Positions 20,303-48,232 are shown, counted from the first letter of the stretch. The stretch: 64,000 bases of DNA from an uncultured bacterium (GCA_903850545.1 CAINLW010000009.1:2311-66310); one strand, 5' to 3'. The notes: generated by a model from the sequence alone, not told the origin. Numbers and translations are program-made.

Positions 20303-20350
20303 TAAAAAAAGTAGCCGCTTCTATTTGTGTAAACAAATAGAAGCGGCTAC
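20303..20350 (-). terminator. Rho-independent terminator (perfect 18-bp stem) after repeat-protein gene A
   Basis: gtagccgcttctatttgt-gtaa-acaaatagaagcggctac preceded on the plus strand by A7. Confidence 0.7.
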
Positions 20351-20365
20351 AATGTTTGTAGATAG

Positions 20366-21181: not shown

Positions 21182-21261
21182 ATACTCGTCTCCTTTAACT
21201 ACAGTTTTTTTAAAGAACTATTTGTTCCAATCAATAATTAAGCATAATCTTTTGAATAAAT

Positions 21262-21288
21262 AAAAAAAGCGAGGATGCCCTCGGTAAA
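21262..21288 (-). promoter_or_regulatory. 27-nt element aaaaaagcgaggatgccctcggtaaaa, copy 1 (weak terminator-like hairpin or shared regulatory site)
   Basis: An identical copy lies at 22335-22361. Each sits ~75-80 nt upstream of a repeat-protein start codon. Confidence 0.4.
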
Positions 21289-21368
21289 ATAGATAATAAA
21301 AATGTCGCACTTGGGATAAAACCAAATGCGACATAAGATCACGTATAACAAATATTCTGCAGAATGAA

Positions 21369-22259
21369 TTATTTTACCTCCTTTCTTTCTATAATCCTTG
21401 CCATCTTTCTGATGACACGACACATTTGTGAACCCCCATCTATAAGTCCATAATTCTTATCCATAAGAATATCTGAGCATTCCTTTGCAGTTCTGGCGAC
21501 ATCAATGGCTCTGTTAGCAATCTTTTTTTGAAGCCATGTGGAATTACTCCCTTCGTCTAAGTCGAGGAGCATATCGTAAAGTTCTTTCATTGAGGCCTTC
21601 AGTAATGCTTTTTTCAAAGACTCACGCTCTATGTAGTCACAATAATCGGGGGAATCTTCATATATCTCCCAGTATTCCTCAGTACTGGTAGCCACCTTAA
21701 GTCTCTGCATGAGAAGTTTTTTTACTTTTTTTCGTGCCTTAAGCTTAATGCGAGGGTCAATACAACCACTAGAAACATCCTCACATTCCCCGACAGTTTT
21801 GGCTGTCTTTAGCTCTCTTCGCATAAGTTTATCCACCATTTCTTTAGCTTTTTGTTTGGTTTTGGTGTTAGCTAAAGGATGATCGCTGATCTCAGAATAC
21901 TCAGAATATCCGAACCAGTCGCCACGACCCTCTTTTGCAATTGTAACAAGTTTTAATTGAAGAAGTTCGTTGAGCTTTTTTCGTGCCATCCTTTTAATGT
22001 CAGTACCTTGGGAATTATAAAGACACTCGCATTCTTTAATTGTTTTTGTGGTCAATATAATTTTATCCAAGATTTTTTGTCTGATATCGCTACCTTTTGG
22101 AGAATATATGTAAACCTTATAGCAATCTCTGGGTGTCGTGGCACATTCGAGTCTCTCTTCTAGTTCGGTAATTGACATCAACCCTAGAGTAAACCTCACG
22201 CTACAAGAACTATTTTCACCGAGAATCTTGACGATTTTTGCCGACGTATCAGTATTCAT
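21369..22259 (-). CDS. Repeat protein, paralog B
   Basis: Start moved to MNTDTSAK (GGAGG Shine-Dalgarno 7 nt upstream; the listed ORF begins 20 codons earlier). Repeats CATTPRDCYKVYIYSPKGSD / VATSTEEYWEIYEDSPDY / VARTAKECSDIL. C-terminal CRVIRKMARIIERKEVK. Confidence 0.55.
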   Translation of the reverse strand: MNTDTSAKIVKILGENSSCSVRFTLGLMSITELEERLECATTPRDCYKVYIYSPKGSDIRQKILDKIILTTKTIKECECLYNSQGTDIKRMARKKLNELLQLKLVTIAKEGRGDWFGYSEYSEISDHPLANTKTKQKAKEMVDKLMRRELKTAKTVGECEDVSSGCIDPRIKLKARKKVKKLLMQRLKVATSTEEYWEIYEDSPDYCDYIERESLKKALLKASMKELYDMLLDLDEGSNSTWLQKKIANRAIDVARTAKECSDILMDKNYGLIDGGSQMCRVIRKMARIIERKEVK

Positions 22260-22334
22260 TTCATTATCCTCCGTTTTAATTTTAAAGACCAATATTTTCT
22301 CCATTCCATGAATAATCATAGTCGTTCTATAAAA

Positions 22335-22361
22335 TTAAAAAAGCGAGGATGCCCTCGGTAA
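22335..22361 (-). promoter_or_regulatory. 27-nt element aaaaaagcgaggatgccctcggtaaaa, copy 2
   Basis: Identical to 21262-21288. Confidence 0.4.
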
Positions 22362-22392
22362 AAATTTTAAAGCTTAATTTTTTTAAACTTAA

Positions 22393-23103
22393 CTAAATGT
22401 CGCTTTGAATATCCTCCCTGAAAAAATATTGAACAGACTTATTTGTTTTCTTTTTAAGATCCTTCAAAACAATTTTTATGCTTTTAATTGAATCAAATTT
22501 AGATGATTCGTTTTTAATTGCAATATTTATTGGCACCCACATATTATGTCCAAAATCTGTATCTTCTATTAATTTTCCTGAATATTTATTCGCGAAGGCA
22601 ATGACAAACAGGACGTCAGAGAAAAGTTCTCCAGATTTATACATAATTCTTCTTTCACATCCAAGAATTTTGAACTTCGCATCAAGTCCAGTTTCTTGCC
22701 TTAATTTTCTGCTAGCAGCATCTTCAAATAATTCTCCTTTAAGTACTACGCCACCCATGACCCCGACTTTTCCATATGAAGGATTAGATTTTCTAATTTG
22801 ATTTAATATTTCTAATTTTCCACCTACAGTTCTTGAAACAATAGTGATAACTTTAACACCAAACAAAGCATCCTCCAATTTGTTGCTTGTGTGGGGATCA
22901 GCTACATATTTCAAACCTTGAGCTGATAGATAGTATTTTGAGTTTTCTTTGGTCAATAACCCCTTTTTTACCAAATGCTGTAAATGATAATTAAATAAGT
23001 CGTTTGGCGTTCCCTGAGGATGCAAATCTGCGTATCTTAAAACATCAGCATTCTTAAGCTTGGAAATAATATAATCTTGGATTGGTGAAAGTTTAGATGT
23101 CAT
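22393..23103 (-). CDS. Winged-helix DNA-binding domain fused to a degenerate Nudix domain (NrtR-like regulator candidate)
   Basis: N-terminal helix-turn-helix-like region. Nudix-box remnant GGVVLKGELFEDAASRKLRQETGLD, in which the REUxEE glutamates are replaced (RKLRQE). Confidence 0.5.
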   Translation of the reverse strand: MTSKLSPIQDYIISKLKNADVLRYADLHPQGTPNDLFNYHLQHLVKKGLLTKENSKYYLSAQGLKYVADPHTSNKLEDALFGVKVITIVSRTVGGKLEILNQIRKSNPSYGKVGVMGGVVLKGELFEDAASRKLRQETGLDAKFKILGCERRIMYKSGELFSDVLFVIAFANKYSGKLIEDTDFGHNMWVPINIAIKNESSKFDSIKSIKIVLKDLKKKTNKSVQYFFREDIQSDI

Positions 23104-23253
23104 GTATTTAAAGAATATACTTTATTTTGAGGAAAATGACAAAGAGTCTGTAGCGTTCTTATTTAATCAAGGTCTGTTTTTAAAGTTACTATTTTGTTTA
23201 TAATTTCTATTAACTGCTTGCTCCACCACAATATTTCATGATACCGTATTAAT

Positions 23254-23922
23254 ATGACAGTGTATGATAAACCACAACCGAAATCAGATGCTCTTGATCA
23301 TATTCGTATAGCAGTAGCCTTGATTCCTACAGAGCCTCTTTTTTCTAATATTATTGAGGCCAGTCAAGCTATAACTCGCCAATTTCAGAATTTTAACATT
23401 ATTGATAAAAATGTTTTTCCTCCTCATGCGTGCCTACATATTTGCACCATATCCAAAGACAAATTGCCACATTTCCTAAAAATAATTAATCAATTGTCCA
23501 ATACAACTTTCCCAATTTTTGATCCATCTATACTAATCAAGGGATCAACGGGCTACATCTCTTTTCAATTAAATATTTCCCCATTGATTCGTTCACTTCA
23601 CGAGAGTGTGTTATCAGCCGCTTTGACTGTTCGGGGAGATGACTATCAGGAAGACCCCGCTCGTTTAGCTCGCCTTTCGGTAGCTGACAGATTGAGCTTT
23701 CAGAAATATGGCAATCGTTTTATCTTCGACAAGTTCAATTTACACATATCCATTGCAAAGGTTGCGCAAGAACATCAAGATGAGGCTTTTGAAATCGCCA
23801 AAACGATCTTAAGCACACCTAAGGCAACGCCCGCAGCTGCTATTCAAGTTTGCGACATCGGAATGCGGAGCGAAAAATGGATCGTTTTATATAGTAAGAA
23901 AATGCAGGGAAAACGTCATTAA
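23254..23922 (+). CDS. 2H-phosphoesterase-like (LigT-like) protein, tentative
   Basis: Two H-x-[ST/C]-x-like motifs about 100 aa apart (PHACLHICTI and NLHISIAKV). GC content above the local average. Confidence 0.3.
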   Translation: MTVYDKPQPKSDALDHIRIAVALIPTEPLFSNIIEASQAITRQFQNFNIIDKNVFPPHACLHICTISKDKLPHFLKIINQLSNTTFPIFDPSILIKGSTGYISFQLNISPLIRSLHESVLSAALTVRGDDYQEDPARLARLSVADRLSFQKYGNRFIFDKFNLHISIAKVAQEHQDEAFEIAKTILSTPKATPAAAIQVCDIGMRSEKWIVLYSKKMQGKRH

Positions 23923-25238
23923 TTTAAATATATAGTTTTATCTTTCAAACTTATTTTACTTTTTAAACATCCCAGTAGTTCTCTCTTTTCTATATCTTTT
24001 CCTTCTCTAAGAATATATTTCGCATAATTTTTAATATCTATATCGGCTATTAGTATTTTTTCATTATTTCCGAGTATCATGTGATTAAATTTTTTGATTT
24101 CTTCAACTTTCGCTTTTATCTTCTCTTTTATTCCAATTTCATCTATATCAATTTTTTCAATTAGGGTTTCAAATTGTTTTATTAGATCTATTTCGTTTAT
24201 ATAACCTCCTTTGCAATTCCTGTCTCTTACCCTGGTACAGCTATAATAGACATGCCTGTGAATATTGCCGTTTTTTTGTTTTTTAAACTTTTCATCTGCT
24301 GTAATTCCAGATCCACAAAGTCCACAAGTCATTAATTTGGTAAAAGCAAATTCCTTACTTTCTGATTTAATAATCTGACTTTTTACTTGATTTTGTACTT
24401 GATCAAACAGTTCTTTGGTAATAAGTGGTTCATGTTTACCCGTATAGAAATTTCCACTTTTTAGTGGATATTCGAAAACTCCATAATAATACGGGTTTCC
24501 TAAAAGTTGATATATATTTCCGAAACTTAATCCTTTGTTACTTTTTACACTTTTGAAATTAATCTCAAACTTCAACCAATTATAGATTTTGTGACCACTC
24601 CATTTCTCATACGCCACCTTTTCAAACATTTTCTTGATTACCGGAGCTCGTTGATGATCAATTACTACGTATCCTTTTCTATCAACCCTTTTTTCGTTCA
24701 AATATCCTACTGGTGGAGGTCCTGGTCTTAATCCCATTTCACATTTAGTTCTTAACCCACGTTTTACATTTACTGATTTATTATCATTTTCTAATTTTGC
24801 TTGAGAACATAAAATCATTAATAAGAACTTTTCGTTTGGTGAATTTATAAATGATTGTCCATAAGTTCTTATTTGTAAAAGTAGTTTCTGATCCATTAAA
24901 TCAACAAGTGATCCAAGATCGCCAGCGTTTCTAGAAAGCCTATCTGGTGCCCAAGTAAGTATTCCGTTAAATCTTTCTTTTCTTATATCTTCAAGTATTT
25001 CTTTAAATATGGGTCTTTGTCCTGAATCTTTAGCTGAATGAGACTCTCTCCTTATATCAATAATCTCAAGTCCTTCTTTTTCAGCCAGTTCAAGCATTTC
25101 TTTTACTTGGGATTCTATAGATAAGATTTGGCGCTCCTCAGATTCTGTACTTTTTCTAGCATATAAACAATATTTAATCTTTGCGGTTGGTATTACAACC
25201 CTTGTACCAATCAAAGCGTTTGTCGCCTGTATTTCCAT
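23919..25238 (-). CDS. Large serine recombinase (resolvase/invertase catalytic domain + recombinase domain + Zn-ribbon)
   Basis: YCLYARKSTESEERQ..SIESQ catalytic-serine region. C-terminal Cys pairs (CGLCGS..CTRVRDRNCKGG). Confidence 0.8.
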   Translation of the reverse strand: MEIQATNALIGTRVVIPTAKIKYCLYARKSTESEERQILSIESQVKEMLELAEKEGLEIIDIRRESHSAKDSGQRPIFKEILEDIRKERFNGILTWAPDRLSRNAGDLGSLVDLMDQKLLLQIRTYGQSFINSPNEKFLLMILCSQAKLENDNKSVNVKRGLRTKCEMGLRPGPPPVGYLNEKRVDRKGYVVIDHQRAPVIKKMFEKVAYEKWSGHKIYNWLKFEINFKSVKSNKGLSFGNIYQLLGNPYYYGVFEYPLKSGNFYTGKHEPLITKELFDQVQNQVKSQIIKSESKEFAFTKLMTCGLCGSGITADEKFKKQKNGNIHRHVYYSCTRVRDRNCKGGYINEIDLIKQFETLIEKIDIDEIGIKEKIKAKVEEIKKFNHMILGNNEKILIADIDIKNYAKYILREGKDIEKRELLGCLKSKISLKDKTIYLN

Positions 25239-25424
25239 GTATTAATGGTGTCAGAGATAGTGTCTTTTGCTAAGCGATAGCTTGTTGGCAACTTTTCTTA
25301 GCAGAATAACTAATTAGCGATATGATCAAGGTAGATTAATAATTTAAAAAGAGTTATTATGTGTAGGACAACTAAATAAGAAGTAGCCTAAACCAGTAGT
25401 AATACTGGCATGGTGAAAGTAAGT

Positions 25425-25510
25425 CCGTTGAAGATAAAAAACCCATCATGTGGGATTTGTCTTCAACGGCCGTATCTGGAAACAGGTATGGAGGGTTCAA
25501 ACCCTCACTC
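25425..25510 (+). other. Structured region upstream of the recombinase: a 10-bp perfect inverted repeat plus a tRNA T-arm-like hairpin; candidate attachment site
   Basis: ccgttgaaga..tcttcaacgg (25425-25469). gaggg-TTCAAAC-ccctc (25491-25506) fits the TPsiC arm consensus, but no complete tRNA could be folded. Confidence 0.3.
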
Positions 25511-25570
25511 ACGTGATGGGCTTTTTGTTTTTCATCACTGGGTTTTAATAACAATTAATAATCTAATGAT

Positions 25571-26206
25571 ATGAAAATTCTCAGAAATATTTTGGGTATA
25601 GGTATCGGTCTTGTTTCTATTGGTTTGTTATTTAGTAAACCAATTTCAGGTATCGTAGGTCTTATTTTTGCAATAAGCTTTTTACCAAAAACGTGGTCTT
25701 ATCTTTCTAAGAAATATAATTTAAATATTCCTAAGCTCTATAAAATATTAATCGTTGTTGTATTACTTTTTGTTTTCTTTAGTCTTTTACCTCAATCAGC
25801 ACCTCAAGTCCAAAATGTTATTAACAATGAAGCTAGTTCAACTACAAATATAATTGATAAAGAAAAAACACAAAGTCTAAATGGTGGTATTAAGTTTAGT
25901 CTTGATAAGGATTACGGATTCGGTGTCATCACTGTTACAAACAAAGATAGCTTTGATTGGAAAGATTGTGTCTTTTCAGTTCCTCTTGCAAAAACTAATC
26001 CTCTTACAATATTAAAAGGAGATTATATGCCTATAACAGCATCTGATTTCTTTAATGATCCTGAGTTTAATAATGGTGGAAAACAAATGACTATGGATGA
26101 TGGCACTTTCAGAAATATAGGAGGTGCTATTAATGTCCAGTGCAGTAATGGTCAAAGCTCAATTGATAATGTTGCTAAAAATTTTAGTAATATAACTGTA
26201 AAATAA
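25571..26206 (+). CDS. Secreted/membrane-anchored hypothetical protein
   Basis: N-terminal hydrophobic segments. Thr/Asn-rich. Confidence 0.4.
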   Translation: MKILRNILGIGIGLVSIGLLFSKPISGIVGLIFAISFLPKTWSYLSKKYNLNIPKLYKILIVVVLLFVFFSLLPQSAPQVQNVINNEASSTTNIIDKEKTQSLNGGIKFSLDKDYGFGVITVTNKDSFDWKDCVFSVPLAKTNPLTILKGDYMPITASDFFNDPEFNNGGKQMTMDDGTFRNIGGAINVQCSNGQSSIDNVAKNFSNITVK

Positions 26207-26210
26207 AATT

Positions 26211-26927
26211 ATGAAAAAAAAGATAATAGTTCTATCTTTCTTTTCACTCCTTATGATAGGGGGTGCTTCAACCGTATTCGCTATTTATGGTATCCAAACA
26301 AAAATAATTAATTGTGTCGCTAACCAAACTTTACAAGACCCTGCTTGCACTCCAGGAGCAGTTTTAACGACGAGTACAACTACAATTTGTAAAACTGGTT
26401 ATACAACAACGGTTCGTGACGTTTCAGTAGCTACCAAAAAGAAAGTTTTTAAGGAATATGGCATTGATTATTCTTTACATTCAAATTATGAAGTTGATCA
26501 TCTAATCAGCCTTGAGCTTGGAGGAAGTAATGATATATCGAATCTTTTTCCCGAGTCATATTTGATTAAAGATAATGCCAGAATAAAAGATAAACTAGAA
26601 AACTATTTGCATAGTAAAGTTTGCAGTGGAAAAATGTCTATCACCGAAGCTCAAAAAGAAATATCAACCAATTGGCTTTATTATTACGATCTTTATTACA
26701 ATGTAAAAGTCGCAACAACTTCAAAAAGCGTTTTACCTGCGACAACTACTTCTATTGTTCCCACCAAATCAATAGCCACATCTTCTACAAATTTTCCCTC
26801 AGTAAAGAAAAGTTTAACTGGTCTTTGCCATGCTTTAGGCACAAGATATTATACTCAGACTTTAAATTACACAGGTTACAATTCGATTGGCGCTTGTTTG
26901 GCAAGTGGAGGAAAATTACCGAAATAA
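26211..26927 (+). CDS. Secreted HNH-family nuclease
   Basis: Signal-peptide-like N-terminus. HNH signature YEVDHLISLELGGSNDISNLFPE. Confidence 0.6.
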   Translation: MKKKIIVLSFFSLLMIGGASTVFAIYGIQTKIINCVANQTLQDPACTPGAVLTTSTTTICKTGYTTTVRDVSVATKKKVFKEYGIDYSLHSNYEVDHLISLELGGSNDISNLFPESYLIKDNARIKDKLENYLHSKVCSGKMSITEAQKEISTNWLYYYDLYYNVKVATTSKSVLPATTTSIVPTKSIATSSTNFPSVKKSLTGLCHALGTRYYTQTLNYTGYNSIGACLASGGKLPK

Positions 26928-26928
26928 A

Positions 26929-28455
26929 TTATCTAAAAAACGGTTTCCAATTTGCTCCAGTAATACCCATAGCTTGGTCAAGATCACTCTCATTAGTATG
27001 ATGATTACTATGATAAATATAACTAATGGATGGTGTACTTTTTGAATCCTCAAACATTTGTAAGATAAGCATTGTCGTGGCGTCAACCAAATCGTCATGC
27101 TTTTCTTTTCCGAAACCCAATATTTGTTCCACTAACTCCTCATTACCTTTATCAGCAAAAACTACACGTCCAAGTTCAATTAAAGCAGAAACAGCCATAA
27201 GTCGATCCTCTTTACTCCAACCTCTTACTGGAAATGGTCTGGCTGGTATTCCCTCAGCCCTTAAGAGATCTGTGATAATTCCTTGGAAGTTTACATCTTC
27301 AACATACACTCGGGAATATGATCCATTATCAGGATTTCGTGAAAGACTTTTAACTCTGCTGATTATTTGGTCAGTAGTTAACCTCGCATTTACTGGATTT
27401 GGTAAAATGTACAATTTTCTATCTTTTCCTGAACCATAGATTTTACCCGAAACCATAGCTGTGTAATCTGCGCCAGCCTTTTGTGATCTTGCAGGGTCAA
27501 TTGAAAGAGCACTGAATCTTAGACTTACTCCAACAGGCAGTTCAGAATAGTGGTGAATATGTTCTCTCTTAATAATCTGATAATCGTTATCGACGATTCT
27601 TAACATATACTCTCTTTGCCAAGTTAGGTCACTAAAACATTTTGATTTTTCATCATCTATATCTTTTTGTGTTTTAAATTTGCCAGGCCAAAGTGGTACA
27701 TTATTTTCATCAATAATTGGAAATTTTCTGAAAACATTTCTTGGATCATTGTTTTGAAAGAATTTTTCCATTCTCATGAGTGTCGAATCGTTGTGCAAGG
27801 GCGTGCCGATGAAAACAAGTTGAGTGTTTCTTTCACCTGCGGGTATGACATCACCTGTTAGCCAGTCATACATTTTATCTCTGTTTTCTTGTGTTCGTAC
27901 TGAATCCGAATCTTCTATATCGTCAGCGATGATCAAGTCTGGTCTATGCTGAAAATGCCTTATACCTCGAATATTTTGCCCAATAGAGCGAGTTGAAATA
28001 TTAGCTCCATATTGAGGAAGAAGAATAGACTGTGTTCCTTCCTGATCGACTTCTTCTTTGAATGGTCCGAAGTCACGTCTAAAGTCATCATTTTCTTCCA
28101 ATTCCTTTTTTATATCGGTAAGGTGTATCTGAGTACTTAGTTGTGTGTGACCTAGAATAAGGATAAACTTTTTCTGCTTTACGCCGACAATTGACCAGAT
28201 GACATACGAAAGAGTGATAATGGTGCTTTTGGCGCTACCCCTAAAAGCGGTAATAACGATATTACGAAGATCAGGATTTTCCGTGAGGTTGAAAATTTCT
28301 CTGTGGAAATCCGCAGTTGGAAATTCTGCATACTTTCTACCGAAGTAATAATGGAAAAACCAATAATGGCTTTTCCTTACCATTGCTAGACGGAATGTTT
28401 TATCTTTAATCATCTGATCGATAATATATTCCTCACTAGGATTTAGGTTGTTCAT
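26929..28455 (-). CDS. Phage terminase large subunit
   Basis: ATPase motif ITAFRGSAKST. Terminase-like length and C-terminal nuclease-like region. Overlaps the upstream small subunit by 20 nt. Confidence 0.75.
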   Translation of the reverse strand: MNNLNPSEEYIIDQMIKDKTFRLAMVRKSHYWFFHYYFGRKYAEFPTADFHREIFNLTENPDLRNIVITAFRGSAKSTIITLSYVIWSIVGVKQKKFILILGHTQLSTQIHLTDIKKELEENDDFRRDFGPFKEEVDQEGTQSILLPQYGANISTRSIGQNIRGIRHFQHRPDLIIADDIEDSDSVRTQENRDKMYDWLTGDVIPAGERNTQLVFIGTPLHNDSTLMRMEKFFQNNDPRNVFRKFPIIDENNVPLWPGKFKTQKDIDDEKSKCFSDLTWQREYMLRIVDNDYQIIKREHIHHYSELPVGVSLRFSALSIDPARSQKAGADYTAMVSGKIYGSGKDRKLYILPNPVNARLTTDQIISRVKSLSRNPDNGSYSRVYVEDVNFQGIITDLLRAEGIPARPFPVRGWSKEDRLMAVSALIELGRVVFADKGNEELVEQILGFGKEKHDDLVDATTMLILQMFEDSKSTPSISYIYHSNHHTNESDLDQAMGITGANWKPFFR

Positions 28456-28846
28456 TTGAGTTTTGATTATTATTTGGTAATGCTAGACGGAGGGCTTCAC
28501 GAAGTAATTTTTCTTGCTCTGGATCGAGGATTTCTTTTTCGTTTTTTATCGTTCCTACTATCTCAACCTTTTCTTTGAATTTTGGATTTCGATGCCTTAA
28601 CCAAAAAGAAAGGGCATTCCAATTTTTTTCTTTTATAAGTGTGAGCAGTTGGCTTTCGGAAATGTCATTGATTAAGGCTTCACCGTCGGCTAATGCTTCT
28701 TCCATATCTTTTGCAAATTCCTTATCTGTATTTTTCCACCTATACAAGCTGACTCTAGATATTGCTACTTTTTCACAGGCAACCTCAATAATCGGAATTT
28801 TTCTTAACTCTACCAGAAACTGATTTTTTACTTTATTCTTTTTCAT
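28436..28846 (-). CDS. Phage terminase small subunit-like helix-turn-helix protein
   Basis: ISRVSLYRWKN helix-turn-helix. Position immediately upstream of the terminase large subunit. Confidence 0.45.
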   Translation of the reverse strand: MKKNKVKNQFLVELRKIPIIEVACEKVAISRVSLYRWKNTDKEFAKDMEEALADGEALINDISESQLLTLIKEKNWNALSFWLRHRNPKFKEKVEIVGTIKNEKEILDPEQEKLLREALRLALPNNNQNSNEQPKS

Positions 28847-30122
28847 AGTAGTTGTGAATTATTTTTGCTTGTTTTCCTGTGAGTTTTAAAAATCTTCTTA
28901 TGGCTAAGTCGATATATATTGGCTGAAGCTCTAGACCATAAACTTTTCTTCTGAGTTGCTCTGCCGAAATTAATGAGCTTGCGGACCCGAGGAAGCTATC
29001 TAATATAATATCTCCGACCTTTGTACATCTTCTGATAATTTTTGAATATAAATTCGTTGGTTTGGAAGTTGCATGTTCCATTTCTTTGCCAGATAATCTT
29101 CTAACCGCCCAGACGTTGAGACAATCAAGGACTTGATCAAACATATCGTTTCCAGTCGTCATGTCCCCATTCATTACCTCATTGAGATTTTGAATGTTTG
29201 GAGCGATATATGGATGACCTCGAAGCCCGTAGGTACAAGGTTCATAGCACTTTGAAAAAGCAATACCTGGGGTCGGGTTTTGTGACTGCTTCAACCATAG
29301 ACACACTCTTTTGTTTTGTATTCCAAAACTTCTATATAATTCTTGTATAAAACCAATATAGATTTGGTCTGAAAAATAAAAGAAATTAACATCATACTTA
29401 GATACAGATAATGCTCCTGCCATGCTTTTTCTAAGGAATTCTTTATATTCAGTGTCGGTTCTATTATCGAGGACTTCACCGCCATAATTTTTTGATCCAC
29501 CTAATCCAGATTTGTAGTTATAATTTATATTGTAGATTGGATCTGAACATACCATTGACGCTTTTTCTTTTCCGAAAAGTTTTTTAACAGCCTCAGCATC
29601 CGTGCTATCTGCACACAAAATTTTATGATCTCCTAATATGACGAGATCACCAAGTTTTGTTTGTGGAATTTTAATTTTGGCTAACTCAATTTTTTCGTCA
29701 AAGTTATCATCCTCAGTTTTTAACTCATCTCCCCAAACTTTTGAAAGATCTATATCACTTAAACCAATGTCAGACAGCAAATCCATCTTAAAATCTTTTA
29801 ATTTTTCAAAATTCCATTGCCCATCATTTAAATTACTTTCGAGACCAATTTTTCTTCTTTCGTCTTCAGAAAGTTTGCGACTTGGGACAAGCACATTAAC
29901 CTCTTTTATCTTTAATTTCATAAGCGCAACCTTCCTTTGGTTGCCAGATAAAATTGTGTTATCTGCATCAATAACAATTACAGCATGAAAACCATGCTGT
30001 TTAATTCTATCCACTAGTCTAGCCATGTCCGGTTTTGTAATCCTGCGAGGATTCGCTTTCCAAACGACTAGTTCTTCGACCTTCCTAACTTCTGCGTGCC
30101 AAACTAATTTTTGTTGAGACAT
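28833..30122 (-). CDS. ParB-like nuclease domain fused to a DNA methyltransferase (N4/N6 type)
   Basis: N-terminal ParB-like region. SDPIYN (DPPY-like) and ILDSFLGSASS (SAM-binding) motifs. Confidence 0.65.
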   Translation of the reverse strand: MSQQKLVWHAEVRKVEELVVWKANPRRITKPDMARLVDRIKQHGFHAVIVIDADNTILSGNQRKVALMKLKIKEVNVLVPSRKLSEDERRKIGLESNLNDGQWNFEKLKDFKMDLLSDIGLSDIDLSKVWGDELKTEDDNFDEKIELAKIKIPQTKLGDLVILGDHKILCADSTDAEAVKKLFGKEKASMVCSDPIYNINYNYKSGLGGSKNYGGEVLDNRTDTEYKEFLRKSMAGALSVSKYDVNFFYFSDQIYIGFIQELYRSFGIQNKRVCLWLKQSQNPTPGIAFSKCYEPCTYGLRGHPYIAPNIQNLNEVMNGDMTTGNDMFDQVLDCLNVWAVRRLSGKEMEHATSKPTNLYSKIIRRCTKVGDIILDSFLGSASSLISAEQLRRKVYGLELQPIYIDLAIRRFLKLTGKQAKIIHNYYEKE

Positions 30123-31034: not shown

Positions 31035-32573
31035 ATGGATCAAACAGAAATATCTATGGAAACGAGTAACAACCAACAAGGCAGTCAATCTACAAAGGGA
31101 GTATATTTTTCTGAGATTTTTGGTGTTCAACACTCAATTATTGAAAAATATGGAGCACTGGATATATCGCTTGTTTGTGACAATCCAGCTTTTGTGGATC
31201 CCTTTCTTATCTTCGCAAATCCTAAATATAGTAAGCTTCATGAATATATAATTAATTATCTTAAATTTTTAAAAGATCTTTCTTCAAAGAATAAAGGAAA
31301 TATACTAAGTGTGGGTGACTTTAAACATTATTATAAATTCCCCGAAGTTAAACAGGTATGGCTTGGTTATTCGCTTAGTGGTAATGGTGGTTTGGGTCTA
31401 GGTATAGAGTTTGCTAGGTCTCTTTATAAAAATTTAAATGAAATATTTTCTGAATTTGGTGACGAAGATATAACAGAAACGGCGCACTTAGAGAAACTGT
31501 GTTTAGTAGAAGATGGCATAGGAGTTGATAAGATTAGTGATTTTACTTTAAATCTAATAAAAATATTTATTCTTGAATATACTCAAGAATTTGCTGAAAA
31601 TTTTTTGGATAAAAAATTCCTATCTGTTTTTGCTGTAAAGAAGACGAGTTTTGATTTTACAAATCAGATTTGGCAGGACGGTTCCTTCAATCTGCCCTCA
31701 ATAGAAATAAATGGGAAAAAACAGTTCGTATTACTTGTTCCAAAAAATATTATAACGAAACACGATAATTGGATTTCAAAAAATGATTTTCTAAATAATG
31801 ATACCTCCATTTTTAATACCATAGAAAATGATGAGTTAAGGACAAAAATTAACAAGTATTTTCTTGATAATCTTTTGACAAAATTTAATAGAGAAAAAAA
31901 GATCGTGAAAGACTTCTCGAGAAAAAGTAAAGTAGTAGCTTTGTCGAAAACCGTTGCGGAGTTTCCTGAGACGCTAGATTACTATATTAGATTCAAAGAA
32001 AACAGAAAAGCTGAAGCATTATTGTCACATGTGGCCAATCCAGAAGAAATTAACCATTTTTTTGATACCTCCATCTTACAGGGTGAATTAGGCGTAAAAA
32101 AGTTTGAAAAGATGTCTTCGTTTGATGATTGTGTTTCTAGAATAGCCTTTTTCAAGAACACCCTAGAATCTAACAGTAAAAAGTTATACATAAAGGATAA
32201 GCCGTTGGAAGAAAAACAACTTCAATTAATGTTCAAGATGGTTACTTTTGATAGTTTGTTTAATTATGATTCCGAAGTAAATAACGGAAGAGGTCCAATT
32301 GATTTTATAATTTCTTATGGAAGTGGTGATAAGACAGGTCTAGAACTTAAGCTAGCTTCAAACACAAAACTAAAAAAGAATCTTAAAAACCAAGGTGTTG
32401 TTTACACTAAAGATTCAAATCTAAAACATGTCATAAAAATAATTTTCTTTTTCTCCGATAAAGAATTGGAAAGAGTGAACAAAATCTTTAAGGAATTGGA
32501 CAAGGTGGTTGATAATAATGAGTTTTTTCTAATTGATTGTCGTAAAAAAGATTCTGGATCAAACCAGGAATAA
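31035..32573 (+). CDS. Hypothetical 512-aa protein with a C-terminal PD-(D/E)xK-like motif
   Basis: GRGPIDFIISYGSGDKTGLELKLASN (D..ExK pattern) near the C-terminus. First gene of a tight four-gene cassette. Confidence 0.4.
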   Translation: MDQTEISMETSNNQQGSQSTKGVYFSEIFGVQHSIIEKYGALDISLVCDNPAFVDPFLIFANPKYSKLHEYIINYLKFLKDLSSKNKGNILSVGDFKHYYKFPEVKQVWLGYSLSGNGGLGLGIEFARSLYKNLNEIFSEFGDEDITETAHLEKLCLVEDGIGVDKISDFTLNLIKIFILEYTQEFAENFLDKKFLSVFAVKKTSFDFTNQIWQDGSFNLPSIEINGKKQFVLLVPKNIITKHDNWISKNDFLNNDTSIFNTIENDELRTKINKYFLDNLLTKFNREKKIVKDFSRKSKVVALSKTVAEFPETLDYYIRFKENRKAEALLSHVANPEEINHFFDTSILQGELGVKKFEKMSSFDDCVSRIAFFKNTLESNSKKLYIKDKPLEEKQLQLMFKMVTFDSLFNYDSEVNNGRGPIDFIISYGSGDKTGLELKLASNTKLKKNLKNQGVVYTKDSNLKHVIKIIFFFSDKELERVNKIFKELDKVVDNNEFFLIDCRKKDSGSNQE

Positions 32574-32611: not shown

Positions 32612-33679
32612 ATGGAAAAACATCTCAAACCATATCAATACTACTCGGACTTGTACGACAAATACACTGTTGAAAGGTGTCGTAATCTGGAGAAAATTGA
32701 TAATGACATAAAATTGCCAGAGGATAAAATCACAAAAGAAAAGCAACAACATTTTAAAAAAGCTTTTTCCAAACTTCACATGTACTTTGAAACAGGAGAA
32801 GATTACCTAGGGAAATCCAAGAGGATAAACGAATGGATGGAAAGAGATAAAAAATACGATGAATTATATGAGCAGGCAAAAGCCCCAGAAAATATCACAT
32901 GTTTATCTTGTGGTCGTTTGATGTTTGTTGAATCGAAACATCTTGATTTTGCAAATAATGACAAAAGAGATCGGGTGATGTTCTTTTATGATTGCCCCCT
33001 AAAACATAAACCGATGCGTGTTTTTTACGATGACGGGGAAGAATATAGGGTCAAACCCCACATTTGTCCAAAATGTAGTTCATCTTTTAGCGAAGAATCA
33101 AAAAAAGAAAAAGATATAATCTATATTACTTATACTTGTTCGAAATGCGGTTTTATCGAAAAAACTGATTTAGACCTGACTATTAAAGAAGAAAAAATTG
33201 ATCTAGATTTTATTAAAGATCGTAATCGTTTCTGCTTATCTGAAGCCGACGGGCAAAAATATATGGAAGCCAAAGTAAACATAGAGAATCTCAGCAAAAT
33301 AATGGATAAATATAAAGAAAAAGAGAAAAATAAGAATTTATATGATAAGGTGGCGAAACTAAAAAAATTAAAAATTATAGAATTAGAAAAACTACTTACT
33401 CCTATACTTGAATCGGCAAATTATGTTAAGCTCCAATTTCAAACTCCGCAGGTAAGCAAGGATGTTTTTGTCCCATTCATAGTTTATGATTCCAAGAGTG
33501 AACGCTCCGAATACGATAGTAAACATAATCTACAAAAACTCTTAAAAACAAAACTAGAGGATACTAACTGGCGTTTGATGAGTGATGGAGTTAATTATCG
33601 CTTAGGTATGCTTGAGTGGCGTTTAAGAGCTTATGAGCGTGAGGAAGATTTGATTAAGCTAATTGAAGATATAAAATAA
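32612..33679 (+). CDS. Hypothetical Zn-ribbon protein
   Basis: Three CxxC pairs (CLSCG, CPKC, CSKCG). Confidence 0.4.
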   Translation: MEKHLKPYQYYSDLYDKYTVERCRNLEKIDNDIKLPEDKITKEKQQHFKKAFSKLHMYFETGEDYLGKSKRINEWMERDKKYDELYEQAKAPENITCLSCGRLMFVESKHLDFANNDKRDRVMFFYDCPLKHKPMRVFYDDGEEYRVKPHICPKCSSSFSEESKKEKDIIYITYTCSKCGFIEKTDLDLTIKEEKIDLDFIKDRNRFCLSEADGQKYMEAKVNIENLSKIMDKYKEKEKNKNLYDKVAKLKKLKIIELEKLLTPILESANYVKLQFQTPQVSKDVFVPFIVYDSKSERSEYDSKHNLQKLLKTKLEDTNWRLMSDGVNYRLGMLEWRLRAYEREEDLIKLIEDIK

Positions 33680-33687
33680 ACAAATCA

Positions 33688-34479
33688 ATGAACATAAAAA
33701 AGTTTCCCAACCCAAAATTAAATTTACCAAAGGATTTGAAAAAGAAAGCTAAAGAAGACCCCGCTTTATTTTTTAAGTATGTAGATAATTATATTAATTT
33801 AGTTGGTAAATACATTTATACAGATATTAATCTTGACTATCAACCAGTGGACGATAATCACATCCATGCTTGGATACAACGAATAGTGAGTGCAAATCTG
33901 TTAAGAAGTCTATATATTCGTAATGAATTTGTAGAGACGATAAATACTAGAAATTTCGTTGGAATGTTTTTACCACTCAAGGCGTGGTTTGAAATAGTTG
34001 GTGTTCTAGCATCAATTCTAGATTTACTAGAGAAAAAATTGTCGAAAGAAGATTTAAGAGAAAAATTAGAACCATATTGCTTAGGGAACAGAGGGATAAC
34101 AAAAATTGGTGAAGTTGAGTCAATAAATGTTTTAACCATGATAAATAAAGCCAACCGATATCTTGAAAAAATGCAAAAAGAAGTTCAAAATAAAGATAAG
34201 GCATCTCCTGAAACTTTTTTTACCAGTTTTTATGATACAGCAAGTAATCCATCACACCCAAGTTTTGATTCTATGGAAATGGTGGGTTTTCTAGATGAAG
34301 AAAGTGGAACTTGGCGCGCCGAATTGCCAGATAATATAAAAGAAAAAATCGTCACGAGTATTGATGGCTACGGTGGATTACTAATGTCACCACTATTTAT
34401 TGAAAATATTTGTCAAAAAATTTTTCTAATAGAAAAAGACAAATTTTTTAAACTAAAAAGTAAAAAGTATTTTGATTAA
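33688..34479 (+). CDS. Hypothetical protein
   Basis: 263 aa. 8-nt gap from the previous gene. Confidence 0.4.
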   Translation: MNIKKFPNPKLNLPKDLKKKAKEDPALFFKYVDNYINLVGKYIYTDINLDYQPVDDNHIHAWIQRIVSANLLRSLYIRNEFVETINTRNFVGMFLPLKAWFEIVGVLASILDLLEKKLSKEDLREKLEPYCLGNRGITKIGEVESINVLTMINKANRYLEKMQKEVQNKDKASPETFFTSFYDTASNPSHPSFDSMEMVGFLDEESGTWRAELPDNIKEKIVTSIDGYGGLLMSPLFIENICQKIFLIEKDKFFKLKSKKYFD

Positions 34480-34496
34480 TTTATCAAATTAAAACA

Positions 34497-34898
34497 ATGT
34501 TTAATGCCACAACTACACCAATACCAGATTTTACAAAAGAAATGGTTACCCAGATTATTCAAGCATTTGATAAGTTACCATTACAAACCGCTAATATCAT
34601 CTGGTCTATTTTTATTTCAATCTTAAAAGCAGATTGGCCTATTTTATTACTAATACTTTTTATAATTGTTTTAGTCGCGACTCTTAAGATGATGATTGGC
34701 CACTGGGGTATGTTTGGTAGTGTTATTTATAATATCTTGTATTTTGGAGTGCTATTAATTATAGGTCTATTTAAGGGCCCAGAGGTTTTTGTAAGTGATT
34801 TTTATAAGCCATTTTGTCTGATAATACTTTACCCCTTGTGTTATTGGATTACTGGATCAATACTAGATTTGGTTAGAAATAGATTTGGGCGAAGATAA
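34497..34898 (+). CDS. Small multi-pass membrane protein
   Basis: 133 aa with about 3 hydrophobic segments. Confidence 0.4.
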   Translation: MFNATTTPIPDFTKEMVTQIIQAFDKLPLQTANIIWSIFISILKADWPILLLILFIIVLVATLKMMIGHWGMFGSVIYNILYFGVLLIIGLFKGPEVFVSDFYKPFCLIILYPLCYWITGSILDLVRNRFGRR

Positions 34899-34899
34899 A

Positions 34900-35338
34900 A
34901 AGTTACACTCAACTGTAACTTTTTAGATCAATCCTGTGTTACTTTTGTAACTATTTAAATAGCTCTTGTCGCGTCGTTTTGATACACTTAAAAGCGTCAA
35001 AATGACCTTGTGGGGCTTGGCCGACCACGGCTCTGTCTCTAGTCGCTCAGCATTAAGTTTAAGTGGTCTGTTTTGGAAAAAATATTCGCGTCGCTACGCG
35101 ACTGTAACAACGTTTCTGCGAGAATTTGCCACGGCATTTTGAAATCCACAGAAATCGAACAGTACGTGTATATATGATTTTGTGAAAAAGATTCCTGACA
35201 TCGTTTTCTGATTAATTAAGTATATTTTGACTTTCAAGCTAAAATGTGACACTATCGAAATTAGGTCTGAAGAATTTAAAAATCAGATAATATCTGCACT
35301 TTAAAAAAACAATCAGTAATATTAAGGAGGAGGGAGAA
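34900..35338 (+). other. GC-rich structured leader/intergenic island in front of a GC-rich gene
   Basis: Helices gtcgttttga..tcaaaatgac and cgcgtcgc-tac-gcgacg. Ends in a perfect Shine-Dalgarno sequence AAGGAGGAGGGAG. Confidence 0.3.
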
Positions 35339-36313
35339 ATGAACGATAATAAGATACACTTCAGTAACGTGCCGTTTATGGCATATGTCGAGAGCATGGG
35401 AGACGAATTGATAGAATGTACTCCAGTGGTATACGGCGATGGACTCAACTATGGCATCAGTGTGTTATTTCCCAACATGGAAAGTATCACATGGGGTCTG
35501 GTGACACCCAGAAACCTCATCACTGCATGGCGTGGGACAGAAATACTGCGTCATATCCACACCATCGAGAACGGAACACTCTGCGCAGCCTACTACACGG
35601 GTATACGCAGTCCTCACGAGAGTGATATGAAGTCGTACGTGGAACCGATCATCAAAAAAATTGGTCGGGATGTGTACGACACAATCATGTCAATGACCGT
35701 ACCCGAACAAATAATAAGGGCAATACTCGACAATCAGAATGGTGATTCCAAACCTGATCTTTACCCGATAACTGACGAAGTACGGGCGGGAACCATCGAG
35801 TGGCGACAAGAGTTCGTCGAATTCGGGATCAAGCACCCTGATGATGTCGATAACGAAGAGAGGTTGCAGAAAGAGACAATCGCTAAATTCGAACGCCTAC
35901 TGGCTTCCTATGCAAGATCGAGAAGTATACCGAGAAACTGTATGGGTATGAATTACGTCGAGAGTGCTCTATTGACTCTCGTCGACAAGAAAGCCAACGA
36001 GGAACATTCGGATAACGTACTTATCGCTCTCTCAGGTGTCGTCGGCGAACTAAGTATAACGAACTTCGCAGCATTTATATTACCGTTTGGCATTAGTAAT
36101 CAGGCGGAATATGATGCACGAATTAACAAAACCAAGGAGGAAGCACTTGAGTATTCGGCGTCGTGGCTGGCTTCAATTTCTAAACCACCGTGGTTTAGTT
36201 TTCTTAGAAAGAAAGAGACTGTCTCATTCACCTCAGAAAATGCAACGAAGTTGCTCAGAGAATTACTTGAAAAGTATTTTCCCAGAAGGAAAAAGTTAGT
36301 TACTTTTGTGTAG
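35339..36313 (+). CDS. Hypothetical protein encoded by a compositionally atypical (higher-GC) gene
   Basis: 324 aa. Strong Shine-Dalgarno sequence. Codon usage is visibly richer in G/C-ending codons than neighbouring genes. Confidence 0.5.
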   Translation: MNDNKIHFSNVPFMAYVESMGDELIECTPVVYGDGLNYGISVLFPNMESITWGLVTPRNLITAWRGTEILRHIHTIENGTLCAAYYTGIRSPHESDMKSYVEPIIKKIGRDVYDTIMSMTVPEQIIRAILDNQNGDSKPDLYPITDEVRAGTIEWRQEFVEFGIKHPDDVDNEERLQKETIAKFERLLASYARSRSIPRNCMGMNYVESALLTLVDKKANEEHSDNVLIALSGVVGELSITNFAAFILPFGISNQAEYDARINKTKEEALEYSASWLASISKPPWFSFLRKKETVSFTSENATKLLRELLEKYFPRRKKLVTFV

Positions 36314-36568
36314 TCTAGTTCCAATCCTTACAACTCAACTGATGTTTGTTTGACGTTTATCTATACACCAAACTAGGAGAACTGGTGGAAAAATAAGCAA
36401 GAGGTCCCGGCTATTTTCAGCGGGACCTTTTACTTTTTATTTTATTTATTAACTACATAAATATTATAATTTTATAATTCACAAAAATTTTTGTTTAACA
36501 AATTTATCAAGATTATATTTTAGTAATTTTGTCCAGCATTTTTATTAAATTTTGATATAATACCCTAT

Positions 36569-39786: not shown

Positions 39787-40035
39787 ATGTATTACCTCTA
39801 TATTCTTAAATGCGCTGATAAAACCCTATATACTGGAATTACAACAGATTTGAAAAGAAGAATTTTTGAACATAATAATACAAAACTTGGTTCAAAATAT
39901 ACTTCTTCTCGAAGACCGGTAAAAATTGTTTACTTTAGAAAATATAAAAATAGATCACTTGCTTCAATAGATGAGGCTAGGATTAAAAAATTAACAAGGA
40001 AAGAAAAAACCAAGTTAATAAATAAGAAATTGTAG
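39787..40035 (+). CDS. GIY-YIG nuclease-domain small protein
   Basis: YYLYILKCADKTLYTGITTDLKRRIFEH. Confidence 0.65.
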   Translation: MYYLYILKCADKTLYTGITTDLKRRIFEHNNTKLGSKYTSSRRPVKIVYFRKYKNRSLASIDEARIKKLTRKEKTKLINKKL

Positions 40036-40108
40036 TTTTGTGTATTTCGCCACGTTGATAATAGTTACGTTACGTGCTACTTTTCTTCATGAACGTTTTG
40101 GGAGGAAA

Positions 40109-40382
40109 AATGAATATAATAGTTAAAGCGGTAACAAATGTCGGTATGAAAGTCACAGGAAAAAGGACTAACAAGCTACCGAAGATTCCGCAAGGGTGCG
40201 GGTTGGTTGCTGTAATACACAAAGGGTCCGAAGATGTGTTAGAAGACGTGACATATTTAGCAAAATATATGGGTTGTCACATAAAGGACTGCTGCGGAAC
40301 ACACAGGATGGACCTATACATTCTGTCACATTATCAGATGCGGTTGTGTGGTATAGGGCCATGCCAACACAGCAAGAGGTAG
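40109..40382 (+). CDS. Cysteine-rich 91-aa ORF in a GC-rich segment
   Basis: GGGAGG 6 nt before ATG. 8 Cys including CCGTH and CGIGPC. The terminator-like hairpin cgcgcc..ggcgcg lies 34-66 nt downstream. Confidence 0.3.
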
Positions 40383-40459
40383 TTGAGTCACCTAGAAGTA
40401 CTCGTGATCGTCGCGCCTGTATTTTAAGGCGCGGCGATTATTTTTTTATATTTTCTGAT

Positions 40460-44901: not shown

Positions 44902-45384
44902 ATGAAAAATAAAAGTACCGCGATTAACGTTGATGATATAGATGTTAAAATTCTGCTGGCAGTTTTTGAGCGCGAGTGCATTCTTAACAGATTGCCGCTC
45001 CGTTTACCAGCAAATATTCCCGCCGAAGAAAAAACTTCTTTCTTCAAGCGGTTGCGGACAGAGCAGGATATCTTTTTACGTGATTTTTATAATAAACACA
45101 TCAGTGACAAAAAAGAATCGCCTGACAAAAAGCTGGAGGCTTACGTTATCGGCAAAAAAATTAAGGGGTCGAAAACAGGAAAGAACGAATGGACTCCTGC
45201 AAGCATTGACGCCCTCGCAAGAAAGAAGGGAAAGCTTCCCAAAGGATCAACCGATGGTATGACCAAGGCCGAGCTGAAGGAGTTCAAAAAGCTTCGGTGG
45301 AATTATAAATACGGAAAACGCCCCGTTACAAAAAAAGGAAAAGGGCGCGGTCAGTCCTCAGGGGCTGAATTGGAGGGCGATTGA
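44902..45384 (+). CDS. Hypothetical basic protein encoded by a higher-GC gene
   Basis: GAAGGAGGAG Shine-Dalgarno sequence. Lys/Gly-rich C-terminal tail. Confidence 0.45.
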   Translation: MKNKSTAINVDDIDVKILLAVFERECILNRLPLRLPANIPAEEKTSFFKRLRTEQDIFLRDFYNKHISDKKESPDKKLEAYVIGKKIKGSKTGKNEWTPASIDALARKKGKLPKGSTDGMTKAELKEFKKLRWNYKYGKRPVTKKGKGRGQSSGAELEGD

Positions 45385-45582
45385 AAAAAAAACAACTGAC
45401 TTTGTAACAACGGGAGGAAAACTTACATGGACAGATGTAGAGTCCAAAATTGCTGCTACTAAAGCTGCTAAGGAGGCAGAAATAAGGTTAAAAGAAGAAA
45501 AGATAGCAGAATTAAGAAAAAGAACAGGACTCTCGGTGCATGAAGCACCAGAAAGCAGGTAAGTAGACAGTAGTAAATATCA

Positions 45583-45620
45583 GCCCCGCCCGGAGTAATC
45601 TGGGCGGGGCTTTCAACTTT
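45583..45620 (+). terminator. GC-rich hairpin terminator
   Basis: gccccgccc..gggcggggc followed by TTTC. Confidence 0.45.
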
Positions 45621-45657: not shown

Positions 45658-45695
45658 ACGACCGAGCTCCCCTGGGAGCTCGGTCGTATTTTTGT
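45658..45695. terminator. Bidirectional terminator (perfect 14-bp stem) between convergent genes
   Basis: acgaccgagctccc-ct-gggagctcggtcgt. T-run downstream on the plus strand and A-rich upstream. Confidence 0.6.
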
Positions 45696-45704: not shown

Positions 45705-46157
45705 TCAGCGCGGAATCGACACTACTGTGATACCAGCAAAAGTATATTTCTTCGGCATCACTACAATTTTCCATCCTTCGCGAAGGCCGATGCCGCCACC
45801 ATGTGAGAACTTGACTTTGTTTTCTGGTGATAAGGTTGCTTCAACATCGGCCCAGAAAAGGTCGTCGACGGCATTAGCGAAGTCACATTCGACCATCGTT
45901 CGTCCCAAATTTTGGCACTTGGGACAGGTGAGCGAGTCGCCTGTGGTCGAGCAGTCAACCATCTCGTTGTGTTCACCAGCCATCTTGTTGTACGAGTCTA
46001 TGGTGTTGTTTTTGAAGGCGTAGAACTTTTGAAGTTCAATGTCGGTTATCTGTCCTACTATCACCTCATTCGACCCCACCTTATCATTCGGACCTTTGAT
46101 ATCCTCAGGTTTTATAGCCGAAATTCCGTCACATAACCGCCTCAGTATCTTTGTCAT
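45705..46157 (-). CDS. Hypothetical protein with a CxxC motif, encoded by a higher-GC gene
   Basis: AAGGAGAG Shine-Dalgarno sequence 5 nt before ATG(46157). CPKC. Confidence 0.45.
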   Translation of the reverse strand: MTKILRRLCDGISAIKPEDIKGPNDKVGSNEVIVGQITDIELQKFYAFKNNTIDSYNKMAGEHNEMVDCSTTGDSLTCPKCQNLGRTMVECDFANAVDDLFWADVEATLSPENKVKFSHGGGIGLREGWKIVVMPKKYTFAGITVVSIPR

Positions 46158-47314: not shown

Positions 47315-47434
47315 ATATTTATTATAATTTTTTATATCAACTGATTAAGCGACAGTTTAGCTTTAATTTATATTATTTATTTTAGCTTTGGCCATTATAA
47401 AGTAGAATATAATTAAATACAAGGTTTTTTGATA

Positions 47435-47455
47435 ATTATTATTATTATTATTATT
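47435..47455. repeat. (ATT)7 trinucleotide microsatellite in the pdaD upstream region
   Basis: attattattattattattatt. Confidence 0.8.
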
Positions 47456-47585
47456 TATTCACAAATTATATATTAGTTAAAAAAAATTTTTATGGTTTGT
47501 ATTAAAAAATAATATTATATATAAAACATAAAGAGCCATATCGTTGGCTCTCGGTACGTCCGCTTGCGAGAATAATTATTATATT

Positions 47586-47819
47586 TTATTTATTTTCGTT
47601 CTCCTTTAAGAATTTTGCCCCTGCTTCAGTGATTTTGAAAAGTTTTTCTTCTTTTGTCACCAGCCCCTTCCTAACGAGGTGCTGAACACCAGTTGCGACC
47701 ATATACCTGCCATGAGCTATGGAAATTTTTTGTTGCTTACAAACAGCATCAATAATTTCCTCATTGGTGGCGCCATGCCGTTTTACCGCATCCAAAACCT
47801 TTAATATATTTATTCCCAT
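47586..47819 (-). CDS. Small hypothetical protein, possible winged-helix
   Basis: GGGAGGG Shine-Dalgarno sequence. 77 aa. Confidence 0.4.
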   Translation of the reverse strand: MGINILKVLDAVKRHGATNEEIIDAVCKQQKISIAHGRYMVATGVQHLVRKGLVTKEEKLFKITEAGAKFLKENENK

Positions 47820-48232
47820 TTTTCCCTCCCAAAGATCCCGCTGGGATTACAATTACATAGGCAAAATAAAAAGTCAACATACTCATTTGTTCTATTGACT
47901 TTATTTGGCATTTAGTTTACACTTGTAATAACTTTAAAACGAATGTGTTGCGGGCGTAAAGTGCCAAATAAGTAGGCTAGATTAAGTTGCTAAACGTCTT
48001 GCTTAAAAAAATAAGTTAAATTTTAAAAAGGAATAGAGAAACCTTATTGGGGAGGTTTGTCTTTTTTTGTTTAAAATTTGGTTTTTGTAAATAACAAAAA
48101 CCTTGTCAGTATGAATATAAAAATGTCGCATATTTTTATATTTTTTGACAAATAAATCGTATTTATTTTTTTGTGCGAGATTTTGTTAGATTAATACTTA
48201 ATATTTACTAACGAAAATAATAAAAATTATTC

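Follow-up and report, generated by a model that had tools for sequence, protein, structure and literature searches.

A 324-amino-acid (aa) gene at 35339–36313 (+ strand), within a 64-kb stretch of DNA from an uncultured bacterium (GCA_903850545.1, CAINLW010000009.1:2311–66310; the whole stretch is called the window below), was probably acquired recently by lateral transfer, as a free-standing gene whose protein is uncharacterised and restricted to one phylum, from a GC-richer Patescibacterium that uses Shine-Dalgarno (SD) sequences. The GC content at the three codon positions, the choice of codons and of amino acids, and the SD of the gene are those of a genome of ~45–50% GC, whereas its host has a GC content of 33% and initiates its genes without an SD, and the gene is therefore best explained by a lateral and recent acquisition. 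The donor would be a genome of ~45–50% GC with SD-led initiation, most likely another Patescibacterium, and the transfer would have been recent enough that mutation bias has not eroded the synonymous sites; we infer the direction and recency of the transfer as well as the phylum of the donor. The block that the initial annotation had described as compositionally foreign would comprise two unrelated neighbours—that is, a cassette of SD, gene, and terminator, and a conserved non-coding element upstream of it.

The open reading frame (ORF) of 324 codons was found where it had been annotated; it spans 975 nt with a GC content of 0.446, and its GC contents at the first, second, and third codon positions (GC1, GC2, and GC3) are 0.474, 0.372, and 0.492, respectively. 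This GC3 lies 7.7 standard deviations (sd) above the mean of the 50 native genes (0.224, sd 0.035), the comparison being with the genes of this one 64-kb window, from which ribosomal-protein genes are absent. Codon usage unlike that of the neighbours, as had been proposed, was also borne out: the synonymous-codon log-likelihood of the gene under window usage gave z = −5.0, and comparable values were obtained for only three other genes, at 45705–46157 (− strand; −5.3), 44902–45384 (−4.1), and 18939–19712 (− strand; −4.1). Native housekeeping genes of the window, taken to stand for highly expressed ones, do not share this composition, as seen for rpoB (GC3 0.206), rpoC (0.218), rpoD (0.209), dnaG, and the gene for an RRM RNA-binding protein (0.27).

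The window itself is a 32.9% GC segment of a bacterial chromosome with ordinary housekeeping genes, namely dus, dnaX, purA, zwf/gnd/pgl, rpoB, rpoC, dnaG, rpoD, and those for an ABC-F ATPase and a U32 peptidase; its sole tRNA gene is at 14939. The named homologs of its unannotated proteins belong to Paceibacterota, Uhrbacteria, and the "Patescibacteria group", so that an origin of the chromosome in Patescibacteria, also known as the candidate phyla radiation (CPR), is reasonable; the initial annotation had presumed an episymbiont. Patescibacteria have tiny genomes and are mostly uncultured, and to our knowledge little is known about gene exchange among them.

Besides composition, the foreign genes differ from the native genes in their translation start. 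The SD of the 324-aa gene, AAGGAGG at 35324–35330 (+), lies 8 nt 5′ of the ATG and is indeed of the textbook kind. With a criterion of at least 5 nt matching the anti-SD complement at −20 to −4, an SD was detected in six of the 60 ORFs of the window, four of them being GC-rich genes (at 35339, 40110, 44902, and 45705, the last on the − strand) and a fifth lying in a mildly GC-enriched block (20366–21181, −). Thus, all four GC-rich genes carry an SD, compared with 2 of 56 others (~3e-5 by hypergeometric count), and the same picture emerged from a start-independent search for AGGAG followed after 4–10 nt by ATG. No recognisable SD precedes rpoB, rpoC, dnaG, or rpoD, as is the case for native genes in general, and some native genes show a TATAAT-like box just before the ATG (e.g., at 36569), which is suggestive of leaderless or SD-independent initiation in the host.

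Downstream of the gene, an intrinsic terminator was located at 36403–36444 (+), with a 7-bp GC stem (GGUCCCG...CGGGACC, 36403–36427) that is extended by flanking pairs and followed by a U-run (folding z = −4.8), and from 36436 onward the GC content falls to 13.5%, in agreement with the return to an AT-rich context behind a GC-rich hairpin noted previously. Upstream, an AT-rich spacer (35151–35323, +; 29% GC) presumably holds the promoter, with weak sigma-70-like matches only. The interval 35324–36444 is a self-contained expression cassette composed of a strong SD, the 975-nt gene, and the intrinsic terminator. The left limit of the unit as a whole is set by an AT-rich perfect hairpin (AAAAAGUUACA...UGUAACUUUUU; 34896–34925, +; folding z = −4.7) that ends the upstream gene block. 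Over the stretch that runs from the upstream genes across the 324-aa gene, the same junctions recur at 99.9–100% identity in at least four independent assemblies from several samples, and an assembly chimera is therefore discounted. At this level of identity among the contigs, population single-nucleotide polymorphisms carry no information on GC-to-AT decay.

With respect to its distribution, the protein family is patchy and confined to one phylum. A search with the 324-aa protein returned 67 homologs at E ≤ 1e-3, of ~322 aa (almost all 305–345 aa) and 42–62% identity, and those with names belong to Minisyncoccia, Moranbacteria, or the "Patescibacteria group", all within Patescibacteria/CPR. 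Among 185,579 species, each represented by one genome, 11 family loci were confirmed, in Paceibacterota, Minisyncoccia, Moraniibacteriota, Staskawiczbacteria, Parcubacteria, Microgenomates, a "Saccharibacteria" metagenome-assembled genome, and unclassified Patescibacteria; a metagenome scan added 11 more, and IMG/VR, INPHARED, and PLSDB gave no match. The family gene is monocistronic at every locus examined, and in nearly all homologs a properly spaced AAGGAG or GGAGG precedes the gene and a GC-rich terminator immediately follows it. Its neighbourhood is different in every genome; IF3/L35/L20 with secY-adk-map, L21 with recR/dnaB, pyruvate kinase, and genes for type II secretion are examples. 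A tRNA gene lies within ~450 nt at 4 of the 22 scanned loci, two of which look orthologous, and this is not significant.

Comparison of GC3 across 19 family loci showed values of 0.31–0.74 that correlate only weakly with the GC3 of the flanking genes (r = 0.39). In hosts of low GC (flanking GC3 0.18, 0.24, 0.25, 0.33, and 0.39), the family gene has a GC3 of 0.57, 0.54, 0.58, 0.48, and 0.59, respectively, with the step falling at the edges of the gene, whereas in mid- and high-GC hosts it about matches its flanks. In a neighbour-joining tree, the low-GC hosts are scattered among the high-GC ones, and the window copy groups with copies from hosts of GC3 0.40–0.64. The three codon positions are coherent with a donor of ~45–50% GC, and the copies in AT-rich hosts would not be long resident. 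Vertical inheritance of the homologs was not found at the loci that were fetched: the distribution of the family is patchy, its loci lack synteny, and hosts of very different GC are mixed in its tree; together with the synonymous sites and codon choice and the foreign SD, this supports the earlier proposal of a recent acquisition from a higher-GC donor.

Amino-acid composition leads to the same reading. Gly, Ala, Arg, and Pro (GARP) have GC-rich codons, and Phe, Tyr, Met, Ile, Asn, and Lys (FYMINK) have AT-rich ones; within the family, the GARP fraction is lowest in the window protein, whose FYMINK fraction is among the highest. Taken alone, these values would have indicated long residence in an AT-rich genome, an interpretation that was rejected because usage across the family follows the GC3 of the gene: FYMINK and GARP correlate with the gene's own GC3 at r = −0.65 and +0.73, but with host GC3 at only −0.22 and +0.41. 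Indeed, the amino-acid usage of a member in a host of GC3 0.48 (locus L002) is nearly that of the window copy.

This dependence on gene GC3 rather than host GC3 also argues against selection on synonymous sites alone, on which the rather unlikely alternative of a native, vertically inherited gene depends, its GC-rich codons and SD being kept by selection, for instance on a very high level of expression or on the structure or stability of the mRNA. Such a gene would fit the observations that the family is GC-richer than its flanks in most hosts, with no ameliorated copy in the lowest-GC hosts, that the strong SD and terminator are conserved family-wide, and that the mRNA of the window gene folds better than synonymous-codon shuffles (z = −3.0). 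Yet that folding signal is ordinary, with a family mean of z = −1.72 against −1.58 (sd 1.37) for 17 control genes of the same loci, and mRNA-structure selection was accordingly rejected as the cause of the high GC; moreover, such a bias is absent from rpoB, rpoC, rpoD, and the RRM gene, and the patchy distribution, the changing gene neighbourhoods, and the interleaving of hosts of different GC in the tree are at odds with vertical descent. The phage-type genes nearby raise the alternative, also quite improbable, that the gene came in as a phage "moron" or was left behind by the phage-like element 5–11 kb upstream (23919–30122; serine recombinase, terminase subunits, and methylase). The autonomous unit with its own terminator, the composition unlike that of the neighbours, and a candidate defence gene (PDC-M36A) just upstream would agree with such an origin, which is opposed by the lack of a family match in IMG/VR, INPHARED, and the BFVD structures and of a significant PHROG match, by the location of the gene elsewhere amid housekeeping genes, in surroundings free of phage genes, by the non-phage nature of its immediate neighbours in the window, and by the near-native GC3 (0.21–0.30) of the phage-like genes themselves, the mobile-element genes nearest to the 324-aa gene. 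Transfer from the host bacterium of the episymbiont, as the initial annotation had suggested, is very improbable: many candidate hosts would, like the gene, be GC-richer than this genome, but neither the 67 close matches nor the 11 genome loci include a named homolog from outside Patescibacteria/CPR, none turned up in the phage and plasmid collections searched, and the homologs sit among Patescibacterial housekeeping genes. In AT-rich genomes, an island of high GC is often an RNA gene, and an artefact was considered as well, be it an assembly chimera or an ORF present by chance in a long, GC-rich non-coding RNA; given the identical junctions in the independent assemblies, the conservation of the 324-codon ORF as a protein in 67 homologs with a confident predicted fold, and the absence of an Rfam match, its probability is close to nil.

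Several points weigh against recent lateral acquisition. Flanking direct repeats or att sites were sought at the 324-aa gene and only short repeats at chance level were found; no integrase or transposase gene adjoins it, the nearest recombinase gene being 10 kb off; and no donor is present among the homologs found, the nearest of which is only 62% identical. Comparison of orthologous loci with sister genomes is hampered because synteny around the downstream 290-aa gene is not conserved: relatives of that gene were found at 71%, 54%, and 51% identity, with the 324-aa gene not nearby in their contigs and neither flank syntenic. The host genome is seen as one 64-kb window, with the ribosomal-protein genes and the 16S anti-SD outside the comparison. 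Finally, all five lowest-GC hosts have un-ameliorated copies and none has an ameliorated one, which would fit rapid turnover, but also a gene-intrinsic constraint on composition. A broader proposal built on rapid turnover, which we put forward tentatively and with more doubt than confidence, is that the family is an autonomous, fast-turnover cassette that moves among Patescibacteria so often that the copies in AT-rich hosts never ameliorate, that it brings SD-dependent translation into genomes not using SDs, and that the small RNA-like element adjoining it in two genomes is perhaps functionally linked to it or marks an insertion hot spot.

That element lies in the leader, which had been described as switching abruptly to high GC at ~34900, as GC-rich, and as carrying several stable helices; this description was not borne out. 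Only ~34955–35150 is GC-rich: GC content is 29% at 34899–34949, 44% at 34950–35150 (with peaks of 47–49%), and again 29% at 35151–35338. The predicted fold of the 447-nt leader (34899–35345) is no more stable than those of its dinucleotide shuffles (z = −0.83), and the same is true of its GC-rich part (34940–35160; + strand, z = −0.56; − strand, z = −0.16), in contrast to other long intergenic regions tested in the window, which reach z = −3 to −10. The leader has no Rfam match even at E ≤ 10, and blastn and nhmmer searches upstream of the homologs revealed no similarity to it.

The region from 34955 to ~35150 is instead a conserved non-coding element separate from the foreign gene. Six-frame searches yielded a nucleotide-level match of 34961–35051 to an intergenic region of L033, a 4.9-kb contig of the closest relative found, which does not contain the 324-aa family gene. 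The element (34955–35075, +; GC-rich on to ~35150) aligned to L033:1058–1178 (+) with a local score of 23, compared with a mean of 9.0 (sd 1.3) and a maximum of 16 for shuffles (0 of 2000 reaching 23) and a best score of 18 over 3,916 tiles of other loci. A covariance model built from these two copies detected a third at L001:7200–7085 (−; 43.6 bits, E ~1e-7), on the opposite strand and 146 nt downstream of the 324-aa homolog in that locus; no further copies were found in the other loci at hand or in IMG/VR. The core hairpin (35012–35040) is kept in all three copies, with compensatory changes; 4 of 14 base pairs show double changes and two G-U pairs are invariant, as judged from three sequences whose ends are unmapped; the invariant G-U pairs place the transcript of the element on the + strand of the window. 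The element adjoins a family gene in two of its three known copies, and in L033 it lies directly 5′ of a NUDIX gene; because that copy occurs without the family gene, the element is neither part of the cassette nor a dedicated leader of the 324-aa gene. A riboswitch or structured cis-regulatory leader was accordingly rejected, given the lack of an Rfam match, the weak folding z, the lack of conservation 5′ of the homologs, and the recurrence of the core at other positions and in other orientations. A pseudogene remnant was also rejected: six-frame tblastn gave only the nucleotide-level match to L033, and the three copies differ by a 5-nt indel, which speaks against a coding function. From these three copies, the element may be considered a candidate for a new small RNA gene or cis element.

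With regard to the protein itself, no Pfam domain was found among the 67 homologs, and the 324-aa protein had no match in Pfam, NCBIfam, or PADLOC, its best PHROG match being non-significant (E = 0.08); a sequence-profile search of the PDB returned nothing meaningful. Alignment of 37 members showed 12 invariant residues and the long motifs PRNLIAAWRGTE, VPExIIRAILDNQ, and ITDEVRAGTIxWRQEF. A profile search over 1.84 billion cluster representatives recovered 381 family clusters (at 50% identity), 215 of them at E ≤ 1e-10, and ten remote, longer members gave a single sub-threshold Pfam match and nothing more. The protein is cytoplasmic. AlphaFold2 with the alignment gave a confident model (pLDDT 92.7, pTM 0.82) with a five-stranded beta domain (residues 5–54) followed by 13 helices. 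The helical domain of this predicted model may be cyclin-box/TFIIB-like, in the sense of a topological resemblance and not of membership: proteins of the cyclin-box fold (cyclins, TFIIB/TFB, ORC6, and the Rb pocket) show no sequence or profile similarity to the 324-aa protein, and Foldseek searches of the model against the PDB and BFVD gave nothing significant. Unlike those proteins, it is bacterial and has an additional N-terminal beta domain, with no sign of a kinase or RNA-polymerase partner. The predicted combination of the two domains might, as a guess of low confidence, point to a protein- or nucleic-acid-binding regulatory scaffold. In addition, the profile search revealed that many family members are half-length, consisting of the N-terminal (~1–175) or C-terminal (~175–320) part only (e.g., at loci L015 and L025); the copy at L015:5929–6531, which adjoins dnaG-rpoD in a genome of 29% GC, is an N-terminal half. 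Such copies may have been split or be in decay, and this would be in keeping with rapid turnover.

The other GC-rich, strong-SD genes that had been reported in the window were likewise recovered. They encode 90 aa (40110–40382, +; SD GGGAGG, GC3 0.48, with its own strong terminator at ~40404–40441), 160 aa (44902–45384, +; SD AAGGAGG, GC3 0.46, terminator 45582–45611), and 150 aa (45705–46157, on the − strand; SD AAGGAG, GC3 0.54, terminator 45658–45687), and the latter two genes converge, both followed by a 13-bp GC terminator. None of the three products matched Pfam, NCBIfam, or PADLOC, the 160-aa and 150-aa proteins had no phage match, and the 150-aa protein is an ORFan with two relatives among 5.8 billion sequences. 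The junctions of the second island also recur in independent assemblies. Because these three genes share the signature of SD and elevated GC3, there are at least three small foreign islets in the window; a lateral origin from a GC-richer source, most plausibly another Patescibacterium, is the likeliest explanation for these genes, too. A small GIY-YIG-like ORF (39788–40036, +) precedes the 90-aa gene, and the U32 peptidase ORF as mechanically listed (526 aa, from GTG 40196) overlaps this gene and its terminator, the true start probably being the ATG at ~40545. Beyond the stop codon of the 160-aa gene, a frame without an obvious start is open for ~55 codons (45385–45560, +; …TWTDVESKIAATKAAKEAEIRLKEEK…) up to the terminator, and could reflect read-through, an extension reached by a frameshift, or a small gene missing from the annotation.

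Lateral acquisition of this sort is a well-known kind of event. The 324-aa gene resembles laterally acquired islets, as viewed in the amelioration framework of Lawrence and Ochman, in its atypical GC at all codon positions and atypical codon usage, its sharp borders, its patchy distribution, and its variable context. It differs from them in being a single gene without mobility genes, flanking repeats, or an adjacent tRNA gene, in having a donor that would belong to the same phylum, and in that the foreign genes are SD-led and the native ones SD-less. Phage "morons" have reportedly been described by Hendrix and colleagues as autonomous transcription units between phage genes. The 324-aa gene is reminiscent of these units in that it stands alone, has a terminator of its own and presumably a promoter, is of a composition unlike that of its neighbours, and is set between unrelated genes; unlike them, it is not inside a recognisable prophage, and its family occurs in no phage collection searched and elsewhere among housekeeping genes. 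Less ordinary are the confinement of SDs to foreign genes, the repeated un-ameliorated copies in AT-rich hosts, the confident but unassigned fold, and the adjoining conserved non-coding element. No major question is changed by these results alone, which indicate that compositional islets in Patescibacteria may be traceable to transfer within the phylum rather than to hosts, and that foreign genes can be recognised not only by GC but also by the signal that initiates their translation; the conserved family with its confident fold is a candidate accessory function, and the element a candidate new small RNA.

Several other features of the window were recorded. Just upstream of the GC-rich block, a 512-aa protein (31035–32573, +) has a PADLOC match (E = 4e-17) to PDC-M36A, a candidate defence family; its gene heads a four-gene same-strand block with 32612–34898, the rest of which is unannotated, and the block from 31035 may, on the basis of this match, be a defence islet. 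Farther upstream, the phage-like block (26929–30122), which encodes a DNA methylase and both the small and the large terminase subunit, and a serine recombinase gene (23919–25238, −) flank a full-length LOOT RNA (RF03000; 25385–25506, +) scoring 85.6 bits against a gathering score of 46.4. The literature on this RNA, and that on SD usage or the composition of horizontally transferred genes in Patescibacteria, provided nothing directly useful. The block at 18939–23922, which abuts the serine recombinase gene, comprises four to five genes with a GC3 of 0.34–0.38 and atypical codon usage; it contains the DUF1385 gene at 18939–19712 and the gene at 20366–21181 with an AAGGAG SD, both on the − strand, and may be an older, partly ameliorated island. 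Long ORF-free intergenic regions at 1357–2017, 4875–5530, 10202–10372, 47315–48232, and 61844–62217 showed folding z values of −3.3 to −10 and had no Rfam match at gathering score; several of them are GC-enriched (39–42%), and that at 10202–10372 is a long hairpin. These regions may be unannotated structured RNAs (e.g., divergent SRP, RNase P, or 6S) or leaders.

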